From positions 31,408-95,407 of the forward strand of contig JAGXBC010000001.1 of assembly GCA_018971305.1 (NCBI GenBank): a DNA stretch of 64,000 nt, in the 5' to 3' direction. The notes below the pieces were generated by a model that searched no databases, was not told the origin of the DNA, and was given only the letters and a program-made list of their open reading frames with translations. Shown one piece after another: positions 3,953 to 43,673 of this stretch. Position 1 is the stretch's first letter. Each line of letters begins with the position of its first letter. The position numbers and the translations under genes were made by a program. The stretch is from Patescibacteria group bacterium (GTDB taxonomy: Bacteria; Patescibacteriota; Minisyncoccia; UBA6257; 2-01-FULL-56-20).

Positions 3953-4330
3953 ATGAAAACAATAACCGATTTAAACAACAAGATGTGGTACAGATTTTTG
4001 AAGGTTTTTTACATCCTTCTAATTTTTGTAGTCATCACCATCACGATTATGATTGGTTGGTCAGACACTTCTTATACGCCATTCGACCCATCTCAGTTTG
4101 GAGCAATACCAGTACAGCCAAAAGATCTTGGCTACTTACCCGTGGACACATCCGCTCCAAACATAAATCAGCTCAGTCCCAGCGACTACACTACGGCACA
4201 GAAATCAAATGGCTTGATGCAGTTCCTCGGTGAGGTTGTCCCGATATTGATCGTGGAGCTATTACTATTTGAGTTTGCCCGAAGAGCTTTCTATTACATA
4301 GTTCTGGGTACCTGGAGGCCTAAAAGATAG
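3953..4330 (+). CDS. Hypothetical small membrane protein (2 predicted TM helices)
   Basis: From internal ATG MKTITDLNNKMWYRFLKVFYILLIFVVITITIMIGW... and a second hydrophobic stretch VVPILIVELLLFEF. Confidence 0.4.
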   Translation: MKTITDLNNKMWYRFLKVFYILLIFVVITITIMIGWSDTSYTPFDPSQFGAIPVQPKDLGYLPVDTSAPNINQLSPSDYTTAQKSNGLMQFLGEVVPILIVELLLFEFARRAFYYIVLGTWRPKR

Positions 4331-4896
4331 CTCCGAGAATATATAGATAAATCAGTTCCATCATTTTCGAATTTCTGATTTTGGTGATTTTTTTCAATTT
4401 TTCAAGTTTGGCGATATTGCTCTCATCGGGTCGAAATCCAATCGGTCCCGAAATGGGAGTTTGGGATTTTCGTCCGGTCTCTTTTTTCAGTTTTTCAGTT
4501 TTATCATAAATGTAGTTTAAGTGTTCAGATTTTGAACATCCTCTCGCTGCTGATTTGCAGTAGATGCAGCGAAAATGCCGTTTCTGATTGTGACACCAGT
4601 TTGCCAGTATTTTTCCAGTATTTACTGGCTACTCATTGCGATATTTTGACCGCACGGCAGTATTTTGGAACGATTTTGACCGGTTTCTTCTGTTCAAATC
4701 ATCAAGTTGGAAGAAATAATTTTGGTAGTTTTTTTAATTATTTAATTTCCCCGATCGCATGTTCAATTTTTGCACATACGAAAACAGCTCCGATGATTCG
4801 GAGCTGTTCGTGTATCCAATTGCTAACCACTCACTCCTTCAATTTGCAACTTAGGCAGTTCATTTTGGCAAAAGGCCGATTTGTTAAGCTTATTAT

Positions 4897-5703
4897 ATGC
4901 CGTTCGTCTCTCTCTCTCTCGTAAATATGATAACGCCACCCGTGCAGTTTCCTTCGGTATTCAAAGATGGGATTGATTTCGCCCTTTCCGCGAGCGTTTT
5001 AGCCATCGGCGTTATCGCCTGTTTTTTCTTCTTTATCGAGTGGCTGAAGCACAAGCACCATAAGTTCCTGCTCTACTGGTCTTTGGGATTTTTAGGAATC
5101 TACTGGTTCCAGATACCGGCTATATTGTTCCATGCTGGAGCCAGTTTCACGTTATCAGATTTCAACCTCTTTTATTCTATATCTTTTCCACTGGCCTTCA
5201 TCGGCCTCGTTGCCATATACAAAGGCATACGCTCGGTAGGTTTTTTGAAGCCTGGCTGGATCAAGAACTATCACCTCTGGATTTGGATGATCCTTTCCCT
5301 CGCCGTATTCGGGACATACGTCTATCTCTTCGGCAGTGCGCCGGACAACTATGTCATTGAGTTCCTGGTCGTCTTCCTCTTTTTCCTGCCGGTTTATTTC
5401 CTCAATATGTACGGTCTGATCCAATGGAAGCGTGACTGGAAGGCAGTAGCTACTAAAACCATCAACGCCGGCATAGTGCTCATGTTTGTAGGCCTGCTTA
5501 TAGGACTATCGGAGAATTTCCTCGCCCTGCGGCAGATACTCATGTACCCTCCGCAGTTCTGGTTCCTGGCCGTCGCTTCGTCGCGGGTTATGTATCTCCT
5601 CCAGTCCGTCGGGATGGTTTTCATGATTACCGGATTTTTCTTCACGCATCACGGGTTCAAAAGAATGAAGTCGGAAGATGTCAAAAGTATTGCCGGGGTT
5701 TAA
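4897..5703 (+). CDS. Hypothetical polytopic integral membrane protein (268 aa, about 7 hydrophobic segments)
   Basis: Repeated 20-aa hydrophobic segments throughout; followed by a terminator hairpin at 5732-5754. Confidence 0.55.
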   Translation: MPFVSLSLVNMITPPVQFPSVFKDGIDFALSASVLAIGVIACFFFFIEWLKHKHHKFLLYWSLGFLGIYWFQIPAILFHAGASFTLSDFNLFYSISFPLAFIGLVAIYKGIRSVGFLKPGWIKNYHLWIWMILSLAVFGTYVYLFGSAPDNYVIEFLVVFLFFLPVYFLNMYGLIQWKRDWKAVATKTINAGIVLMFVGLLIGLSENFLALRQILMYPPQFWFLAVASSRVMYLLQSVGMVFMITGFFFTHHGFKRMKSEDVKSIAGV

Positions 5704-6606: not shown

Positions 6607-6960
6607 TTATACAAACTCTATTTTGGCCAGACGGCTGCCATCGCGTTTTTTTGATTTAGAAAGCTTGATTATTCTTAAATATCCCCCCCTCCTCTCGGCA
6701 TAACGCTTGGCGAGATCTCCATAAAGCTTTTCCGCCACAACGCTGTTTTGCGTGCGGGCCAGCAAAATCCGCCTTGATGCCAAGTTCTGCTTTTTGGCCA
6801 TAGTAACCAATTTCTCTACGATCGGCCTGATAGCTTTCGCTCTTATTTCGGTAGTTTCCATCCCGCCAGTTCTTACGAGATCGTTGGCCAGGTTCCTAAG
6901 GAACGAACGCCTCTGCCCGGATAATCTATGAAATTTTTTTCCTTTCTTTAAATGACGCAT
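6607..6960 (-). CDS. rplQ: 50S ribosomal protein L17
   Basis: MRHLKKGKKFHRLSGQRRSFLRNLANDLV...GGYLRIIKL, typical of L17. Confidence 0.9.
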   Translation of the reverse strand: MRHLKKGKKFHRLSGQRRSFLRNLANDLVRTGGMETTEIRAKAIRPIVEKLVTMAKKQNLASRRILLARTQNSVVAEKLYGDLAKRYAERRGGYLRIIKLSKSKKRDGSRLAKIEFV

Positions 6961-7002
6961 AAATTTTTATCTCATTACAATCAAACACCTGTTTGAGTTT
7001 TA

Positions 7003-38376: not shown

Positions 38377-38392
38377 TAGAAAAATAAAATCT

Positions 38393-38920
38393 ATGCTATT
38401 TTATTTAAAAAAAATAAAGAGGCTGCCTATAATAGTTTCCGCTATATTATTACTCCTGATAGTGGGCGGGGTAGTATGGTTCCGTTCCCAGCAGCAGAGA
38501 GCATTAAATCAAGCAGATCAGCGGGAGTATAATGGTCACGATGATATTTCGATAGTTCAGCTTGCACACGAAGCAGTTAATTATCTAAACGATTTTTACA
38601 ATATGAATCATCAATTTCCTTCGGATCACGAATGGGAAACGCAATTCCTTACACCACACAACCTTGGAACATATAGCGACAATATGCGAACAACATTGCT
38701 TCAATACGATAATCACCAGAATTATTCGGAGGTTATCAATGGCCAAACCCAATATGGACCACGTTCCGACACATTCCTGCTGAGATACGACCTAAGACAC
38801 CCAGAATCGTTTGCTGTAGGTGAACTAGTACAATCTTACTTTTGTATTTTTGGATGCGGCACAGATACAGAATATTGGATCACCAATAAAACCTATAAAG
38901 GTTTTATGACTGCTCCTTGA
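38393..38920 (+). CDS. Hypothetical membrane-anchored protein (175 aa)
   Basis: N-terminal TM LPIIVSAILLLLIVGGVVWF; no other motif. Confidence 0.4.
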   Translation: MLFYLKKIKRLPIIVSAILLLLIVGGVVWFRSQQQRALNQADQREYNGHDDISIVQLAHEAVNYLNDFYNMNHQFPSDHEWETQFLTPHNLGTYSDNMRTTLLQYDNHQNYSEVINGQTQYGPRSDTFLLRYDLRHPESFAVGELVQSYFCIFGCGTDTEYWITNKTYKGFMTAP

Positions 38921-39152
38921 AGAATGGAGCATCACGATTTCCCGGTCGCGGCCCGGCTGCCCGCGGGAGAACGGATACCAGGAATCGTTCTATGGCAAGT
39001 TCAAAGTTGATTTCGGGGACCCGAACCGGTTCAGAACTTTGGGCGAACTGGTTGCCGCTATCTACCGCACGATCTGGGAATACAACCATACAAGGATTCA
39101 TTCCGCGCTCAAGATGCCCCCGTCGGTGTTTGCGGAGAAGATGGCGGCATGA
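38910..39152 (+). pseudogene. IS3/IS481-superfamily (rve integrase-core) transposase, C-terminal remnant only (~70 aa, no start codon)
   Basis: Frame open from the TGA at 38907-38909. It reads SRSRPGCPRENGYQESFYGKFKVDFGDPNRFRTLGELVAAIYRTIWEYNHTRIHSALKMPPSVFAEKMAA*, matching the conserved end of rve-domain transposases (GxP.[DE]N...ESF.G..K.E...F.T..EL...I...I..YN..R.HS.L...P). Confidence 0.6.
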
Positions 39153-39385
39153 GAAAATGAAAAAACGGCGAGGGAATTCGCCGAATCAATGTCTAAAGAA
39201 ACCTATCCATTGCAGCCTAATATCTTGTACCAAGTAGCTTTATTTTTTGGGAAAAAGAGAACAGCACTAACTGCAAGCGTACCCGCGGTTATTCCGTGTT
39301 CAATATTTCCGGAATTCGACCGTTTGGAACCTTGGCCCCAAACTTGTTTTGAGTCTACTATCCAAAATCAAATTACCACATTGTG

Positions 39386-39426
39386 CGAAAAAAAGAAGGC
39401 CGCTGCATAAACTTCATGCAGCGGCC
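39386..39426 (-). terminator. Rho-independent terminator after the 211-aa ORFan
   Basis: 11-bp stem ggccgctgcat(39398-39408)/atgcagcggcc(39416-39426), followed on the minus strand by TTCTTTTTTTCG. Confidence 0.6.
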
Positions 39427-39447
39427 GAAATGCCGAGAGTCAAAGAG

Positions 39448-40083
39448 TTAAATAGACTTGCGGACAGCGGCGAAACGACAGATCGAGATCCACCCGCCGT
39501 CGAAACAGCCCAGGTACAGGACGCGCCCGCCGGAGCCCCTGCCGAGGCACACGACGAAGCGATCGCCGCGCCGGCCCCGCCACACGGAATTGGGGCCGAG
39601 GGCAACTATCGGGAATTCACGCTGCTTCTCCCTGTAAGCTGCGCCGAAAGCCAGAAGTTCCGGCAACTCGGCAGGACGGAAACCCATTCTGTCGAGTCCC
39701 CGCACCGCTCCGTCCGAATCAATGTCACGGTTGAAGTGAATCAATTCCACAACCACTTTTTCCTTGCCGCGATTTGCCCGCAACACGGGAAAGTGTTCCT
39801 CGGTGATGTCGGAATTAACCCAGTCATATTTCCCGGCGGCGATCATCCGTGACAAGGTCAGTGAGTAATAGACGATTACGCAGAAGATGTTCTTCGCGGC
39901 TTGCATCGCTTCCGCTAGAACGTCGGCGATCTTCTCGACCAAAGCATCCGGCGCTTCGCCGTCCTTCACAAGTTCATGAATCTGCTCGTCGGAAGCACCG
40001 AGGTTGCGCAGAGCTTTTTCGAGCTTGGATGCGAAACTTCCGATCCAGCCCGCGCCGCTCACGATTGCAGTTGGTTTTGCCAT
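39448..40083 (-). CDS. Hypothetical protein (211 aa) in a GC-rich island
   Basis: ORF with its own terminator; local GC content is visibly higher (about 58% by eye) than the flanks; no motif recognised. The plus-strand ORF 39349..39852 is its antisense shadow. Confidence 0.5.
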   Translation of the reverse strand: MAKPTAIVSGAGWIGSFASKLEKALRNLGASDEQIHELVKDGEAPDALVEKIADVLAEAMQAAKNIFCVIVYYSLTLSRMIAAGKYDWVNSDITEEHFPVLRANRGKEKVVVELIHFNRDIDSDGAVRGLDRMGFRPAELPELLAFGAAYREKQREFPIVALGPNSVWRGRRGDRFVVCLGRGSGGRVLYLGCFDGGWISICRFAAVRKSI

Positions 40084-40337
40084 TTCAGTTTCTCCTTCAT
40101 CCGCTCATCCCTCGGTCCGATAAACGAACAATCGGACTCCCGGATAAGTCGGCTGCCTGCAGCTTTCAACAAAATCAAAGATTTCAAGGTACGGCTTAAT
40201 TATACACCACAAACCCATATTATGTCAAGCGGTTGAAAAACTGCCTAAATATGGGGAAAAACTCTCTGCTGACCTACGCACTTCTATAAATAAATTAACT
40301 CTCTTCAATTCCGCCTCTCCGAACCGGTTGTGCGGGC

Positions 40338-40424
40338 TCATAAACGGACCTTCTTTAAGGCAACATTACCACCGAACCATCGGCGCGAGAGGCGCTCGTA
40401 CGCTGGGGTGATGTCAGTGACGAT
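40338..40424 (-). pseudogene. Displaced, diverged duplicate of the murI 3' end (28 codons + stop, no start)
   Basis: Minus-strand reading gives IVTDITPAYERLSRRWFGGNVALKKVRL*. The true murI C-terminus is LVTDITPEYVRFSRKWFGKTKLKTVEL* (17/27 identical, same length to the stop); the two copies match at about 79% nucleotide identity over the upstream ~48 nt. Confidence 0.6.
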
Positions 40425-40431
40425 GGTTATC

Positions 40432-40848
40432 TTAAAGATTGACTAAATATGTTTCCAGTAATTTTTCTACCGCGGCCAAGGTTTCCTTTTTTAGTTTCGG
40501 ATTGCTTGCCGCCACCCATTTGGCGAAGTTATAAAATTCCTGATTATCAACCTTGAGCCATTTTTTATTTTTGTAGAGAAAATATAATAGTGCGGTCATT
40601 GCGATACGTTTGTTGCCGTTCTGAAACGGGTGATTTTTCACAAGGAGATAAAAAAATATCGCGGCCTTGCCAAGGAGTCCCGAGTAAGCGGGCTTGCCGC
40701 CGAAACTCTGAAATGGCGCGATAAGGCAGCTTTCAAGAATGTTGGGAAAGCGTGAGCCGAACTCGGGAATAGGCTCGTCCCATGTCATCGTTTCTTTGGC
40801 CAAAGTATAGGCAACGTATTCCACCTCCCTGATCGTGAGCGATTTCAT
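40432..40848 (-). CDS. doc: Doc (death-on-curing) / Fic-family toxin
   Basis: Doc-type Fic motif HPFQNGNKRIAMTAL (HxFx[DN]GNKR); 138 aa; starts 7 nt after the stop of the upstream HTH gene. Confidence 0.8.
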   Translation of the reverse strand: MKSLTIREVEYVAYTLAKETMTWDEPIPEFGSRFPNILESCLIAPFQSFGGKPAYSGLLGKAAIFFYLLVKNHPFQNGNKRIAMTALLYFLYKNKKWLKVDNQEFYNFAKWVAASNPKLKKETLAAVEKLLETYLVNL

Positions 40849-40854
40849 TTCTCC

Positions 40855-41109
40855 TTATTCTTTGCCGAGCAATTTAAGGGTTTGACCGTATTCTTTCACT
40901 GTCTTCCTGACCGCGCTTTCTATTAGGCGCTTCTTGTCCTCACCTAGAACTATACCGAGTATCTCCGGAAACTCGCTCTTCCGCACAACAAAATTACGAC
41001 CAACCTTGCTAGCTTTTATTTCGCCGGATTTGATTTTTTTAAAGACAGCAATTCGGCTTATACCCAAAAGCCTGGCAACCTCGCTTGTAGAAAGCAATTC
41101 TTTTTCCAT
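40855..41109 (-). CDS. Helix-turn-helix (excisionase/MerR-like HTH_17) DNA-binding protein, likely antitoxin of the Doc toxin
   Basis: LLSTSEVARLLGISRIAVFKKIKSGEIKASKVGRNFVV fits the excisionase-family HTH pattern; 84 aa, immediately upstream of doc. Confidence 0.7.
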   Translation of the reverse strand: MEKELLSTSEVARLLGISRIAVFKKIKSGEIKASKVGRNFVVRKSEFPEILGIVLGEDKKRLIESAVRKTVKEYGQTLKLLGKE

Positions 41110-41139
41110 ATAAATGAATATTAATCCTTGTTAACCGAC

Positions 41140-41175
41140 TTGTCAATGGTTAACATATGTTAACCAAACCGCCTT
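41140..41175. promoter_or_regulatory. Triple GTTAAC(C) palindromic repeat in the 70-bp leader of the HTH-doc operon (candidate operator)
   Basis: tGTTAACCgacttgtcaatgGTTAACatatGTTAACCaaacc read directly, between murI stop 41180 and HTH start 41109. Confidence 0.35.
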
Positions 41176-41179
41176 TTAT

Positions 41180-41971
41180 TCATAATTCAACTGTCTTCAG
41201 CTTCGTCTTCCCAAACCATTTACGCGAGAAGCGCACGTACTCCGGAGTGATGTCGGTGACCAAGAGTTCCCTCTTCCAATTTTCGCTCAAGAGCGAATCA
41301 ATTTCCGGGTGGTGCGAAAGATAATCCTTCAGCTTCCGTGGAATAATTTCGTCTTGCGAAACCACGGGCACGCCGGCAATCCTGCGAATCATATTTTTCA
41401 ACGCCGGATAATGAGTGCAACCCAAGATTATTTTTTGTACTTTTTTCCGCTTTAATGGCTTAAGATACTCACGCACGAATGGCTCGGCGCGTTTAAACTC
41501 CCCGCTTTCTATTAACGGCACAAGCATCGGTGCGGCATTCTGGAAAACTTTTACGCCGCGGTTAAGCTTTTTTAACTCCCGTATATAGGCGCCGGAATTT
41601 ACAGTCCCCTGCGTCGCTAAGACTCCTATTTTTTCGATTTTTTTATCTTTAAGCGCTTCTTCGACCGTAGGAATTATCACGCCTAAAACCCGCCGCTTCG
41701 GATAATGCTTCGGCAAATAATTCCTCTGAATTTTCCGCAACGCCTCGGCGGACGCAGTATTACAGGCAACGATGATCAATCCGCAATCTTTTTTAAATAA
41801 ATATCTCACCGCCTCCTCTAAAAACCGGTAAACTGTTTCGGGCGAGCGGTTGCCATAGGGAACGCGCTGCGTATCGCCCAGATAAACATAATCATAACGC
41901 GGCAATTTGCGCACCAAAGCCCGCATAACGAAGAGCCCGCCCAGTCCCGAATCAAAAACGCCGATCTTCAT
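41180..41971 (-). CDS. murI: Glutamate racemase
   Basis: MKIGVFDSGLGGLFVMRAL...IIVACNTASAEAL...KIILGCTHYPAL, typical of MurI. Confidence 0.9.
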   Translation of the reverse strand: MKIGVFDSGLGGLFVMRALVRKLPRYDYVYLGDTQRVPYGNRSPETVYRFLEEAVRYLFKKDCGLIIVACNTASAEALRKIQRNYLPKHYPKRRVLGVIIPTVEEALKDKKIEKIGVLATQGTVNSGAYIRELKKLNRGVKVFQNAAPMLVPLIESGEFKRAEPFVREYLKPLKRKKVQKIILGCTHYPALKNMIRRIAGVPVVSQDEIIPRKLKDYLSHHPEIDSLLSENWKRELLVTDITPEYVRFSRKWFGKTKLKTVEL

Positions 41972-41977
41972 CGCGCG

Positions 41978-43213
41978 CTAGCCGATAACTTTCTTCCCGA
42001 AATATTTTTGCAAAGCTTCCGGAACGTCAATTTTCCCGTCTTCCCTCTGATAATTTTCCAAAACAGCGATGATTCCCCGCGAGGTGGCGATGGCAGTGCC
42101 ATTCAGGGTATGGACGAATTCCGGCTTATCCGCAGTCTGCCCTTTGTATTTGATATTCAGCCTCCGCGCCTGATAGTCTGTTGTGTTGGAAGTTGAGGTA
42201 ACTTCTCCGTAATCGCCCCTCCCCGGCATCCAGGCCTCCAGGTCAAACTTGCGTGCCGCCATCGCACCCAAGTCACCGGCGCACATCTCAAGTACGCGGT
42301 AAGGAATACCGAGGGATTGCCAGAGTTCTTCTTCCAGGGCCAGCAGCTCTTCGTGGATCGCGGGCGATTCTGCCGGCTTCGCGTAAGCGAACATTTCCAC
42401 TTTCGTAAACTGATGCACGCGGTAAAGTCCCCGAGAATATTTTCCGTAAGCGCCTCCTTCCTGGCGGAAACAATGCGAATAGCCCGCATAGCGCTTAGGC
42501 AGATCTTTTTCCTGCAGAACTTCATCGGCGTGAATGGCGGCAAGCGTTACCTCGGCTGTGGCAATAAGGCCCAAGTCGGAATCGGCAACCAGATAAGTCT
42601 GCGCCTCCGGCCCGCGCGGATTGTAACCTGTGCCCAAATAGAATTTATCTTTTGCCAAATCCGGCGTAAGCCAAAGGTCAAAACCTTTCTTGCGGAGAAA
42701 ATCCAAAGCATACTGCACAAGCGCGAGCTCTAAGAGCGCACCGTCGTTCTTCAGATAATAAAATCCCGAACCGGCAACTTTGGCGCCGGAGGCGAAGTCA
42801 ATTATTCCCAGGGCCTCCCCCAATTCCAGGTGGTCTTTCGGCTTGAAAGTAAATTCTGTCTTTTTTCCCACTTCGCGCAGAACCTTGTTTTCCGATTCGT
42901 TGAAACCCTGCGGCACTTCCGGCAAGGGCAGATTGGGAATTTTCATCCAGGCCTCATCCCGCTCTTTCTCCAATTCCGTAATCTCCAATTCCGCCGCTTT
43001 TATTTCTTCCTTATTCTTTTTGGCTTCCTCAACGTTGCGCTCCTTGGAAAGCTTATTCTGCTTGGCACGGAGTTCGTCGAGCTTAACCCTGAATTCGCGC
43101 CAGTTATTGTCACTCTCCAAAAAATCGTCCACGAGCGCCGGGTCGGCGTTTTTGGCCTTGAGCCCCGCCTTAACTGTTTCCGTATCTTCGCGTAAAAGTT
43201 TGATGTCCAGCAT
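41978..43213 (-). CDS. serS: Serine--tRNA ligase
   Basis: Coiled-coil N-arm MLDIKLLREDTETVKAGLKAKNAD and class II motifs (FRQEGGAYGKYSRGLYRVHQFTKVEM; GAMAARKFDLEAWMPG). The start could instead be 43231 (MIYDKKM). Confidence 0.85.
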   Translation of the reverse strand: MLDIKLLREDTETVKAGLKAKNADPALVDDFLESDNNWREFRVKLDELRAKQNKLSKERNVEEAKKNKEEIKAAELEITELEKERDEAWMKIPNLPLPEVPQGFNESENKVLREVGKKTEFTFKPKDHLELGEALGIIDFASGAKVAGSGFYYLKNDGALLELALVQYALDFLRKKGFDLWLTPDLAKDKFYLGTGYNPRGPEAQTYLVADSDLGLIATAEVTLAAIHADEVLQEKDLPKRYAGYSHCFRQEGGAYGKYSRGLYRVHQFTKVEMFAYAKPAESPAIHEELLALEEELWQSLGIPYRVLEMCAGDLGAMAARKFDLEAWMPGRGDYGEVTSTSNTTDYQARRLNIKYKGQTADKPEFVHTLNGTAIATSRGIIAVLENYQREDGKIDVPEALQKYFGKKVIG

Positions 43214-43289
43214 TTTTTTATCATATATCATTTGACAAGATTTTTGAAATCCGGGAACATTTAAAGAGCTCTGATAATCGGAGGATAAT

Positions 43290-43673
43290 ATGCCTGAAAA
43301 TAAGTTGGCTAGCTCGCATCGCTTTCTCATGATTTTGTTCGTAATGATCCTGACGATGCCTGTCGCAATAGCTTCCAAGTCCACCACCAGCACCAAAACC
43401 ACAACTCAAACCCCAGGGAAAATCTGCCCGCCAGAAACCCCGAATGACTATCCGGCGGAAGAAATGTGCCAGAAATGCTGCTGCATGAAAAGTAAATACA
43501 AAGACTGCGATACAGAATGTAAGCAGATGAGAGAAGCCAAGGCCGACATTAACGGAACTCCCGTAGAGGTTTATAAAGATCTCGTTGGCTTGAAAGATGC
43601 AAATAACAGCATGTGCACGAAGCTATGCAAAATCCCGAAACAGAATACGAACACACATAAACACAAACACTAA
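43290..43673 (+). CDS. Small secreted cysteine-rich protein (127 aa, signal peptide, 8 Cys, His/Lys-rich C-terminus)
   Basis: Signal-like MILFVMILTMPVAIASKST, Thr-rich linker, then CPPETPNDYPAEEMCQKCCCMKSKYKDCDTECK...CTKLCK. Followed by terminator 43686-43716. Confidence 0.45.
   Translation: MPENKLASSHRFLMILFVMILTMPVAIASKSTTSTKTTTQTPGKICPPETPNDYPAEEMCQKCCCMKSKYKDCDTECKQMREAKADINGTPVEVYKDLVGLKDANNSMCTKLCKIPKQNTNTHKHKH

Follow-up and report, generated by a model that had tools for sequence, protein, structure and literature searches.

The 64 kb stretch of DNA analyzed here (the window), from contig JAGXBC010000001.1 of a Patescibacteria group bacterium, carries a two-gene cassette inserted directly behind the glutamate racemase gene murI. 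The cassette encodes a small helix-turn-helix (HTH) protein, the putative antitoxin, and a Doc (Fic-fold) protein, the toxin of a predicted toxin–antitoxin (TA) pair, and the end of murI is present on both sides of it, once in place as the end of the intact gene (copy F) and once as a start-less fragment behind the Doc gene (copy P). The two ends have diverged in a manner which suggests, with moderate confidence, that one of them belonged until recently to the working murI of another lineage. The account favored here, at somewhat better than even odds, is that the cassette was inserted after the murI stop codon and that the duplicated end is xenologous, having arisen by homologous recombination with imported DNA.

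The murI locus and its two gene ends

The features of the locus all lie on the minus strand, in the order serS, murI, a 70 nt leader, the HTH gene, the Doc gene, a 7 nt spacer and the start-less murI tail (Table 1). This arrangement had been proposed from the letters of the DNA alone, and the open reading frames (ORFs) and domain matches agree with it. The whole structure is also present in an independent Logan assembly (L001), with 100% identity over 4397 nt, so the arrangement is not an assembly artifact. The insert between F and P measures about 755 nt and contains only the leader, the HTH gene and the Doc gene. Copy P starts immediately after the spacer with its frame and stop codon intact, and at most 13 nt separate the murI stop from the point at which homology shared by the whole cassette family begins.

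The product of the intact murI is 100% identical to the NCBI entry 'glutamate racemase [Patescibacteria group bacterium]' and matches a profile of 79 MurI homologs over positions 1–263. A search with this profile against 2368 six-frame pieces of the window gave two matches with E < 1, murI itself and copy P (E = 1.1 × 10−5 over profile positions 236–264 of 265), which confirms that the second copy is homologous to the murI terminus; no third murI fragment was found in the window by this profile. A repeat finder detected a 50 nt direct repeat of 80% identity (40372–40421 versus 41211–41260, spacing 839), in good agreement with the original estimate of about 79% over some 48 nt. The two copies had also been described as identical in length, which is not the case: P is one codon longer than F (WFGGNVALKKVRL versus WFGKTKLKTVEL), and identity over all 28 aligned codons falls to 67%, with a longest exact match of 8 nt. 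At the protein level, the F/P flank pair scores 80; the scores of 209 mock positions reach at most 63 (99th percentile 55).

Neither the cassette nor a second murI tail is present at six related murI loci, which represent five lineages (L002/L003, L004, L005, L171 and L172; proteins 77–84% identical). Both F and P can be aligned with the one murI tail present in L002, in L171 and in other relatives, these empty sites belonging to other genera-level lineages. The murI cassette is an insertion, as the original prediction had it, and the comparison of related genomes that was suggested there yields empty sites and refutes an ancestral murI–HTH–doc synteny. A second murI tail was also absent from 80 murI loci from genome contigs and from the six relatives, and no Doc locus adjoining murI was found other than that in the window.

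The differences between F and P, counted over 28 codons, are mostly synonymous (pS 0.64, pN 0.28; proportions of synonymous and nonsynonymous differences, respectively), and copy P is intact in frame, contains the conserved residues TDIT and WFG and ends in a stop at the homologous position. When the five loci with a coding repeat are pooled, pS is 0.54 and pN is 0.14 (p = 0.005 versus a model in which one copy decays neutrally) over about 80 codons, of which some at the boundaries may fall outside the repeats. Copy P shares 78% identity over 87 nt with the murI tail of L171, exceeding its 67% identity to the resident copy F. The mean identity to five orthologous tails is ∼0.70 for F and ∼0.67 for P. 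Since F and P are about equally far from these tails, the branch leading to P does not exceed that of the working copy in length. Neutral decay of P following duplication in situ would give a branch several times longer, which argues that P is not a fresh in-situ duplicate. The 67% identity between the tails, the predominance of synonymous differences and the equal distances to the orthologs together suggest that P is probably a foreign murI end, that is, the recently frozen end of the murI of another lineage. That one tail very probably has its origin in another lineage fits the proposal that one of the termini is a replacement and the other the displaced original.

Copy F shares a one-codon deletion and the motif RFSRKWFG with the closest relative (P0002); copy P has the length found in the tails of all other relatives and stands in a context like that of L002. 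The murI gene of the window is about equally distant from its five relatives (73.5–76.2% nucleotide identity), and sliding-window identity to these five shows no clear switch within murI that might mark a recombination breakpoint. On these comparisons either F or P may be the native tail.

Copy P is followed by 108 nt and then by a promoter and ORF211, the homolog of ORF206 in L002, and window positions 40182–40229 are 90% identical to L002 positions 6944–6990, which lie between murI and ORF206 with no cassette there. The spare tail and the DNA downstream of it therefore correspond to the murI–ORF206 junction of a cassette-free relative, placing the GC-rich island that begins with ORF211 outside the inserted unit and arguing against it as the vehicle. 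The island is not flanked by murI tails. Integration had been ascribed to a larger element, this island or a decayed element; the position of the island outside the repeats, and the same murI junction in the cassette-free L002 and L003, speak against this.

The cassette family and the surroundings of the insertion

The HTH protein matches PF12728 (HTH_17; E = 2.4 × 10−8) and the excisionase family TIGR01764 (37.9 bits, cut-off 28.8). Its putative role as an antitoxin is suggested by the position of its gene, the stop codon of which lies 6 nt ahead of the Doc ATG. Doc matches PF02661 (E = 1.6 × 10−10) and TIGR01550 (47.8 bits, cut-off 38.65), and the pair is predicted to have toxin–antitoxin activity. 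The NCBI annotation places the start of Doc later, giving a protein of 118 residues (P0125, 86% of the query covered); the 138-residue form agrees in length with homologs of 138–141 residues elsewhere.

The leader contains a perfect palindrome, GGTTAACATATGTTAACC (41148–41165), that is unique within the window, a further GGTTAAC half-site (41130–41136) and a promoter consisting of TTGACA (41141–41146), a 17 nt spacer and TAATAT (41118–41123). The promoter scores 10/12 in a promoter scan and ends 8 nt before the HTH ATG, a spacing that suggests a leaderless cassette transcript. The motif GTTAAC-N4-GTTAAC is present once each in 33 of 85 cassette loci, always 40–75 nt ahead of the HTH start codon, and is absent from the murI loci; the palindrome is a putative operator. 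A TTGACA/TAATAT-type promoter is likewise part of the leader conserved in the family. A domain search of the cassette and of the flanking ORFs tested in the window revealed no recombinase gene.

Homologs of Doc number 5107 at E ≤ 1 × 10−5, the best being 70–90% identical and nearly all belonging to Patescibacteria. Of 80 metagenome loci, 79 have an HTH homolog directly ahead of Doc, and cassette homologs occupy at least 85 unrelated Patescibacteria loci. In 2027 pairwise locus alignments the left ends of the homology cluster at positions −50 to −69 relative to the HTH start codon, with an onset of homology at about −55 to −67, and the right ends at positions −30 to +10 relative to the stop codon of Doc. 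The three Doc proteins most similar to that of the window (83–90% identical; five loci, L166–L170) are found in unrelated contexts, such as upstream of ychF or between glycosyltransferase genes, without murI and without flanking repeats. The inserted unit is the cassette itself, which is discrete and mobile. The view that the cassette alone does not explain the footprint is not supported, since the edges of the insert are those of the unit in the other loci, some of which have flanking duplications of their own.

No terminal inverted repeats of the cassette were detected in 56 loci (mean z −0.25, none above 3), and no recombinase is present among the called genes of related cassette loci. A phage origin was rejected owing to the absence of Doc relatives from 2.9 million viral contigs, and tandem arrays of the cassette were rejected because no locus contains two Doc matches.

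Flanking sequences of 200 nt on each side of the cassette were compared in 51 non-redundant loci, the window included; L124, L134 and L163 were left out of the scoring owing to a contig-end artifact. Eight of the 51 loci reach a flank score of at least 34, compared with 0.27% of 740 mock positions in the same loci. The repeats are 17–87 nt in length and differ in sequence from locus to locus. They comprise the 3′ end of typA with half of its terminator (L095 and L173; 66–69 nt, ∼96% identity), the end of a 352-codon reading frame (L165; 45 nt, 87%), the 3′ end of radA (L148), the 3′ end of a tRNA-Ala gene (L090) and terminator hairpins (L125, L150 and L127, with 36 nt at 100% in L125). Flanking duplication is a repeated habit of the cassette and not a one-off. 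In the typA case, occupied (L095/L173) and empty (L174/L175) sites are both available from close relatives, with typA at 86.8% nucleotide identity; the downstream copy is 93% identical to the single empty target and the two copies are 95.5% identical to each other.

The cassettes of L095 (3765–4415) and L173 (5204–5805) represent a variant in which the antitoxin is shortened to 60 residues and lacks the HTH part, the leader lacks the GTTAAC palindromes and the Doc frame has no stop of its own, terminating inside the duplicated typA tail (...YIVDYER and stop). In L090 the tRNA 3′ end is repeated over 17–19 nt at a distance of 21 nt behind Doc, and in two other loci Doc is directly followed by a tRNA-Gln gene.

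In four loci, 5′ fragments of 6, 10, 16 and 19 codons (MKIKDLPKI.../MNLKNLPKIERPREKL), presumably of radC as judged from the RadC N-terminal motif, lie at or just past the Doc stop, with the rest of radC missing (Table 1). The interpretation of L123 as a duplication of an intact radC start was rejected, as this locus has two radC 5′ scraps, one of them preceding the cassette, and no radC gene. These fragments have the appearance of remnants that the cassette brought with it from a former site upstream of radC.

Table 1. Positions of the features of the murI locus and of gene fragments and tRNA genes at other cassette loci
Feature	Sequence	Positions	Strand	Basis
serS	Window	41978–43402	-	Mechanical ORF
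murI (glutamate racemase), intact, 263 aa	Window	41180–41971	-	PF01177, E = 1.4 × 10−19
Upstream repeat copy F, working last 28 murI codons and stop, LLVTDITPEYVRFSRKWFGKTKLKTVEL	Window	41180–41266	-	Direct repeat D1, codon comparison
Cassette leader, 70 nt	Window	41110–41179	-	Promoter scan, palindrome, start of cassette homology
Putative antitoxin, 84 aa excisionase-family HTH protein	Window	40855–41109	-	PF12728, TIGR01764
Doc (Fic-fold) toxin, 138 aa, motif HPFQNGNKR	Window	40432–40848	-	PF02661, TIGR01550
Downstream repeat copy P, start-less murI terminus and stop, IVTDITPAYERLSRRWFGGNVALKKVRL	Window	40338–40424	-	MurI profile match
ORF211 promoter, sigma-70-type, 12/12; outside the inserted unit, marks the native context	Window	40199–40228	-	Promoter scan
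ORF211, first gene of the GC-rich island	Window	39448–40083	-	tblastx homology to L002 ORF206
radC 5′ fragment	L110	∼1034		
radC 5′ fragment	L097	∼2404		
radC 5′ fragment	L091	∼929		
radC 5′ fragment	L123	1441–1500		
tRNA gene	L090	1181–1254		
tRNA gene	L137	3613–3686		
tRNA gene	L153	1789–1860		
tRNA gene	L152	1906–1979		

The contents of the spacer downstream of murI differ among the relatives. In L172 the convergent genes murI and alr adjoin directly, in L004 an EamA gene lies between the two, and murI is followed by a 69-residue ORF in L005 and by a membrane ORF in L171. In L002 and L003 it is followed by ORF206 and then by a diversity-generating retroelement (bAvd and a reverse transcriptase, with RVT_1 in L002). 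The spacer between the convergent murI and alr genes (window positions 38390–41180) is a variable hot spot, holding 2.8 kb of assorted material in the window. The spacer between serS and murI is variable as well: L005 has a ParE toxin pair there, and L002, L171 and L172 each have an HTH_20 gene. The mechanical ORF of serS encodes 474 residues from a GTG start, compared with 417 residues by gene callers (L001 positions 3958–5211), and the N-terminal 57 codons are probably not translated.

The ORF211 region has a GC content of 52–60%, compared with ∼45% nearby, and ORF211 matches no Pfam or NCBIfam family. The island in the window contains no reverse transcriptase, bAvd or template/variable repeat pair of a diversity-generating retroelement; ORF211 may be an orphaned or decayed target gene of such an element. 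Identity to L002/L003 is 90% at the ORF211 promoter and ∼75% in the surrounding genes, which may point to recent exchange of the island between lineages. The 'transposase remnant' noted earlier in the island is a 37-residue ORF (39039–39152, plus strand) whose rve_3 match is weak (E = 0.043) and does not reach the curated cut-off; it is unconfirmed as a transposase fragment.

Origin of the duplicated gene end

Under the favored account, a self-contained type II TA cassette of about 750 bp (promoter, HTH antitoxin and Doc kinase toxin) would have entered the junction between murI and ORF211. The family would move as two genes alone, encoding no recombinase, some loci keeping a long target duplication, and the target duplicated in the window would be the last ∼87 nt of murI. 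With its end duplicated, the essential gene keeps a complete terminus and the spare is left behind the toxin gene. Two routes could lead to this structure. In the first, a molecule carrying the cassette and a murI end would integrate by a Campbell-type or 'ends-in' single crossover. In the second, an initial long target duplication would be followed by recombinational replacement of one copy by the DNA of a relative. By analogy with the Phd–Doc paradigm, addiction to Doc would disfavor loss of the cassette once it was inserted. The lack of a recombinase, the variable repeats, the donor- and recipient-like copies and the carried scraps together make Campbell-type integration the simplest of these possibilities. 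Recombination might also account for the equal branch lengths of F and P and for the pooled synonymous bias, both of which come from a small sample.

Several observations weigh against this account. RecA-type recombination proceeds poorly on a stretch of 50 nt with 80% identity, and no circular or excised form of the cassette was seen. The sharp and constant ends of the cassette are more naturally explained by an enzyme that recognizes them than by general recombination. About five in six cassette loci have no flanking repeat, including the five closest to that of the window. The typA case looks like a duplication formed in situ, so that more than one process may be at work. No empty murI site was seen within the same species, the closest murI relatives having 84% protein identity, and the limits of the codon statistics given above apply here. 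Finally, the cassette lies 8–10 nt past tRNA-Ala(CGC) in two lineages, and a tRNA gene is present within 250 nt in about seven of the 60 loci scanned, both of which would favor an integrase.

These tRNA positions, together with the sharp ends of the unit and the duplication of gene 3′ ends and of a tRNA 3′ end as at classical att sites, could arise from site-specific integration in trans, by an integrase whose gene would lie elsewhere in the genome or on a helper element and which would target the 3′ ends of genes and tRNAs. The cassette would then resemble an integrase-less cis-mobilizable element (CIME), the repeats would represent attL and attR, and the element would have supplied a replacement murI terminus. 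The membership of the antitoxin in an excisionase family of DNA-binding domains and the foreign appearance of one murI tail are consistent with this. However, no integrase was found in or beside the cassette, either in the window or in the other loci inspected, although with 64 kb of the genome covered a trans-acting enzyme may be encoded outside it, and the repeats vary in both sequence and length, whereas an att site would be a property of the element. The murI copies also lack an identical core longer than 8 nt and the family uses many different targets, so that the att-site analogy drawn in the original prediction is not supported in its strict form. Integration in trans is considered unlikely.

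Alternatively, the insertion could have taken place purely in situ, with staggered breaks ∼87 nt apart being filled in to give a long target duplication and the two copies then diverging within this lineage over a long time. Near-identical repeats elsewhere in the family (36 nt at 100%, 66–69 nt at ∼96% and 40–50 nt at 90–95%) are what such a process would produce, in the typA case more identity is shared between the two copies than between the downstream copy and the empty target, and the published precedent for restriction–modification (R–M) systems uses the same criteria (PMC2853133). For the window, however, the synonymous distance is near saturation while pN remains low, P has neither a frameshift nor a premature stop and ends at the homologous position, and P is no further from the orthologous tails than F and is nearer to L171 than to F. 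An insertion of such age should also be common to the relatives, yet it is not. On this evidence the purely in-situ origin of the murI duplication appears improbable.

A further possibility, to which only a small probability is given, is that the HTH–Doc pair is a minimal selfish mobile element of 750 bp with constant ends and no recombinase gene, which spreads among Patescibacteria, loops out and in via the long target duplications that it generates and carries scraps of its neighbors, such as gene ends, with it. The HTH antitoxin and the GTTAAC palindromes might then perhaps take part in a DNA transaction.

The spare tail could also be the leftover of a second, imported murI or of an island (murI tail, promoter and ORF211 from a relative) that was joined downstream of a pre-existing cassette, either by deletion or by homologous recombination on one side combined with illegitimate recombination, the position of the tail marking the breakpoint. 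The high GC content of the ORF211 region, the conserved promoter, the slightly greater proximity of P to the L171 and L002 tails than to F and the variable murI–alr spacer, the contents of which differ in every relative, are all compatible with such an event. It would require, however, that the breakpoint fell within ∼7 nt of the right edge shared by the whole cassette family and that the retained piece happened to match the DNA preceding the cassette, and the window contains no further murI fragments. Since the arrangement of a repeat on each side of the cassette recurs at other loci, a common mechanism is more economical, and an imported leftover is judged to be very unlikely. That there was no insertion at all, the resemblance being due to chance or the murI–HTH–doc order being ancestral, finds nothing in its favor except the shortness of the repeat and is scarcely credible given a profile match at exactly the C-terminal 29 positions, a protein-level score above those of all 209 mock positions, the six related loci without the arrangement and the lack of a second tail in other murI loci.

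Significance and relation to known systems

Patescibacteria have tiny, streamlined genomes, and a passage of PMC12455944 cites the view that reduced genomes may largely lack classical defense systems, including TA systems. The Doc cassette family nevertheless has thousands of relatives at unrelated sites. The window shows such a cassette placed against an essential cell-wall gene without harm, as the end of the gene is present twice. If homologous recombination with imported DNA is indeed responsible, spare gene ends of this kind would be fossils of DNA exchange between lineages and could be used to trace it in uncultivated bacteria. If the cassette is instead a selfish element, it would be the TA counterpart of the hypothesized 'virus-like life cycle' of R–M systems, which is not yet described for TA systems.

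The cassette resembles Phd–Doc of phage P1 and chromosomal Doc systems in having a TIGR01550 match above the cut-off with the kinase-type motif HxFx(D/N)(A/G)NKR (here HPFQNGNKR), a small partner gene upstream in the same operon and a palindromic promoter region. It differs in that the partner is an excisionase-family HTH_17 protein instead of one with the Phd/YefM fold, and in that its toxin–antitoxin function is predicted.

The TA cassettes of integrons and superintegrons are likewise small promoter-bearing TA pairs that move as cassettes. In contrast to these, the Doc end has no attC-like site, the homology stopping at the Doc stop, and neither an integron integrase among the neighboring genes inspected nor an array was found. 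Insertion sequences and miniature inverted-repeat transposable elements also provide a poor match, in view of the lack of terminal inverted repeats in the 56 loci and the variable duplications of 17–87 nt.

Phage 21 and e14 enter the 3′ end of icd, and ICESt1/ICESt3 and the integrase-less CIMEs derived from them enter that of fda, in each case supplying a substitute end. As at these sites, the target gene, here murI, is intact and a second, diverged version of its 3′ end stands beyond the insert; CIMEs similarly lack a recombinase. Each of the icd and fda elements relies on a dedicated integrase and on a single fixed att site whose core is identical, whereas the cassette family has many targets with unrelated repeats and no recombinase beside the element, no identical core and no constant target were found; tRNA-Ala(CGC) is a target used twice.

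Campbell-type insertion–duplication is used for mutagenesis in naturally transformable bacteria. A single crossover there produces a segment–cargo–segment arrangement without a dedicated recombinase, and the copies differ by the divergence between donor and recipient, as may be the case for the two murI ends. It is a laboratory phenomenon, whereas a natural circular or terminally redundant molecule of the cassette was not observed.

The closest parallel is offered by R–M gene complexes, the insertion of which with long target duplication is reported to have been described by Nobusato et al. (2000, Gene 259:99). In the published description the addiction complex is contained entirely in the insert, mobility genes are lacking, and the duplication exceeds 30 bp and often involves the 3′ end of a gene (PMC2853133). 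The murI cassette is similar in that an addiction pair without a mobility gene has been inserted as a unit, relatives have empty sites and the duplications exceed 30 bp, vary in length and are specific in sequence to each site; the mechanism is unknown there also (PMC2853133). With regard to the criteria of Furuta, Abe and Kobayashi (2010, NAR; PMC2853133), which include an insert of less than 20 kb, a whole addiction complex forms an insert of ∼755 nt free of mobility genes, and the duplication of more than 30 bp aligns to a single copy in genomes with an empty site. In L095/L173, but not in the window, the identity between the copies exceeds that to the empty target. In the collection of papers searched, there was no relevant report of long target duplication of TA cassettes, of such duplication in Patescibacteria or of Doc in Patescibacteria.

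The present case differs from the R–M systems in its cargo, which is a TA pair, in its host, a member of the Patescibacteria, and in the divergence of the repeats, the copies in the window being 67–80% identical and xenologous in appearance compared with ∼93–100% in the published cases. The apparently xenologous nature of the duplicated gene end is an additional feature of the present case. As the cargo is a TA pair, the DNA-breakage idea put forward for R–M systems does not apply here. Insertion with long target duplication, known only for R–M systems, is thus extended to a Doc TA cassette in Patescibacteria, and since this second type of addiction module does not cut DNA, the possible mechanisms of long target duplication are narrowed.

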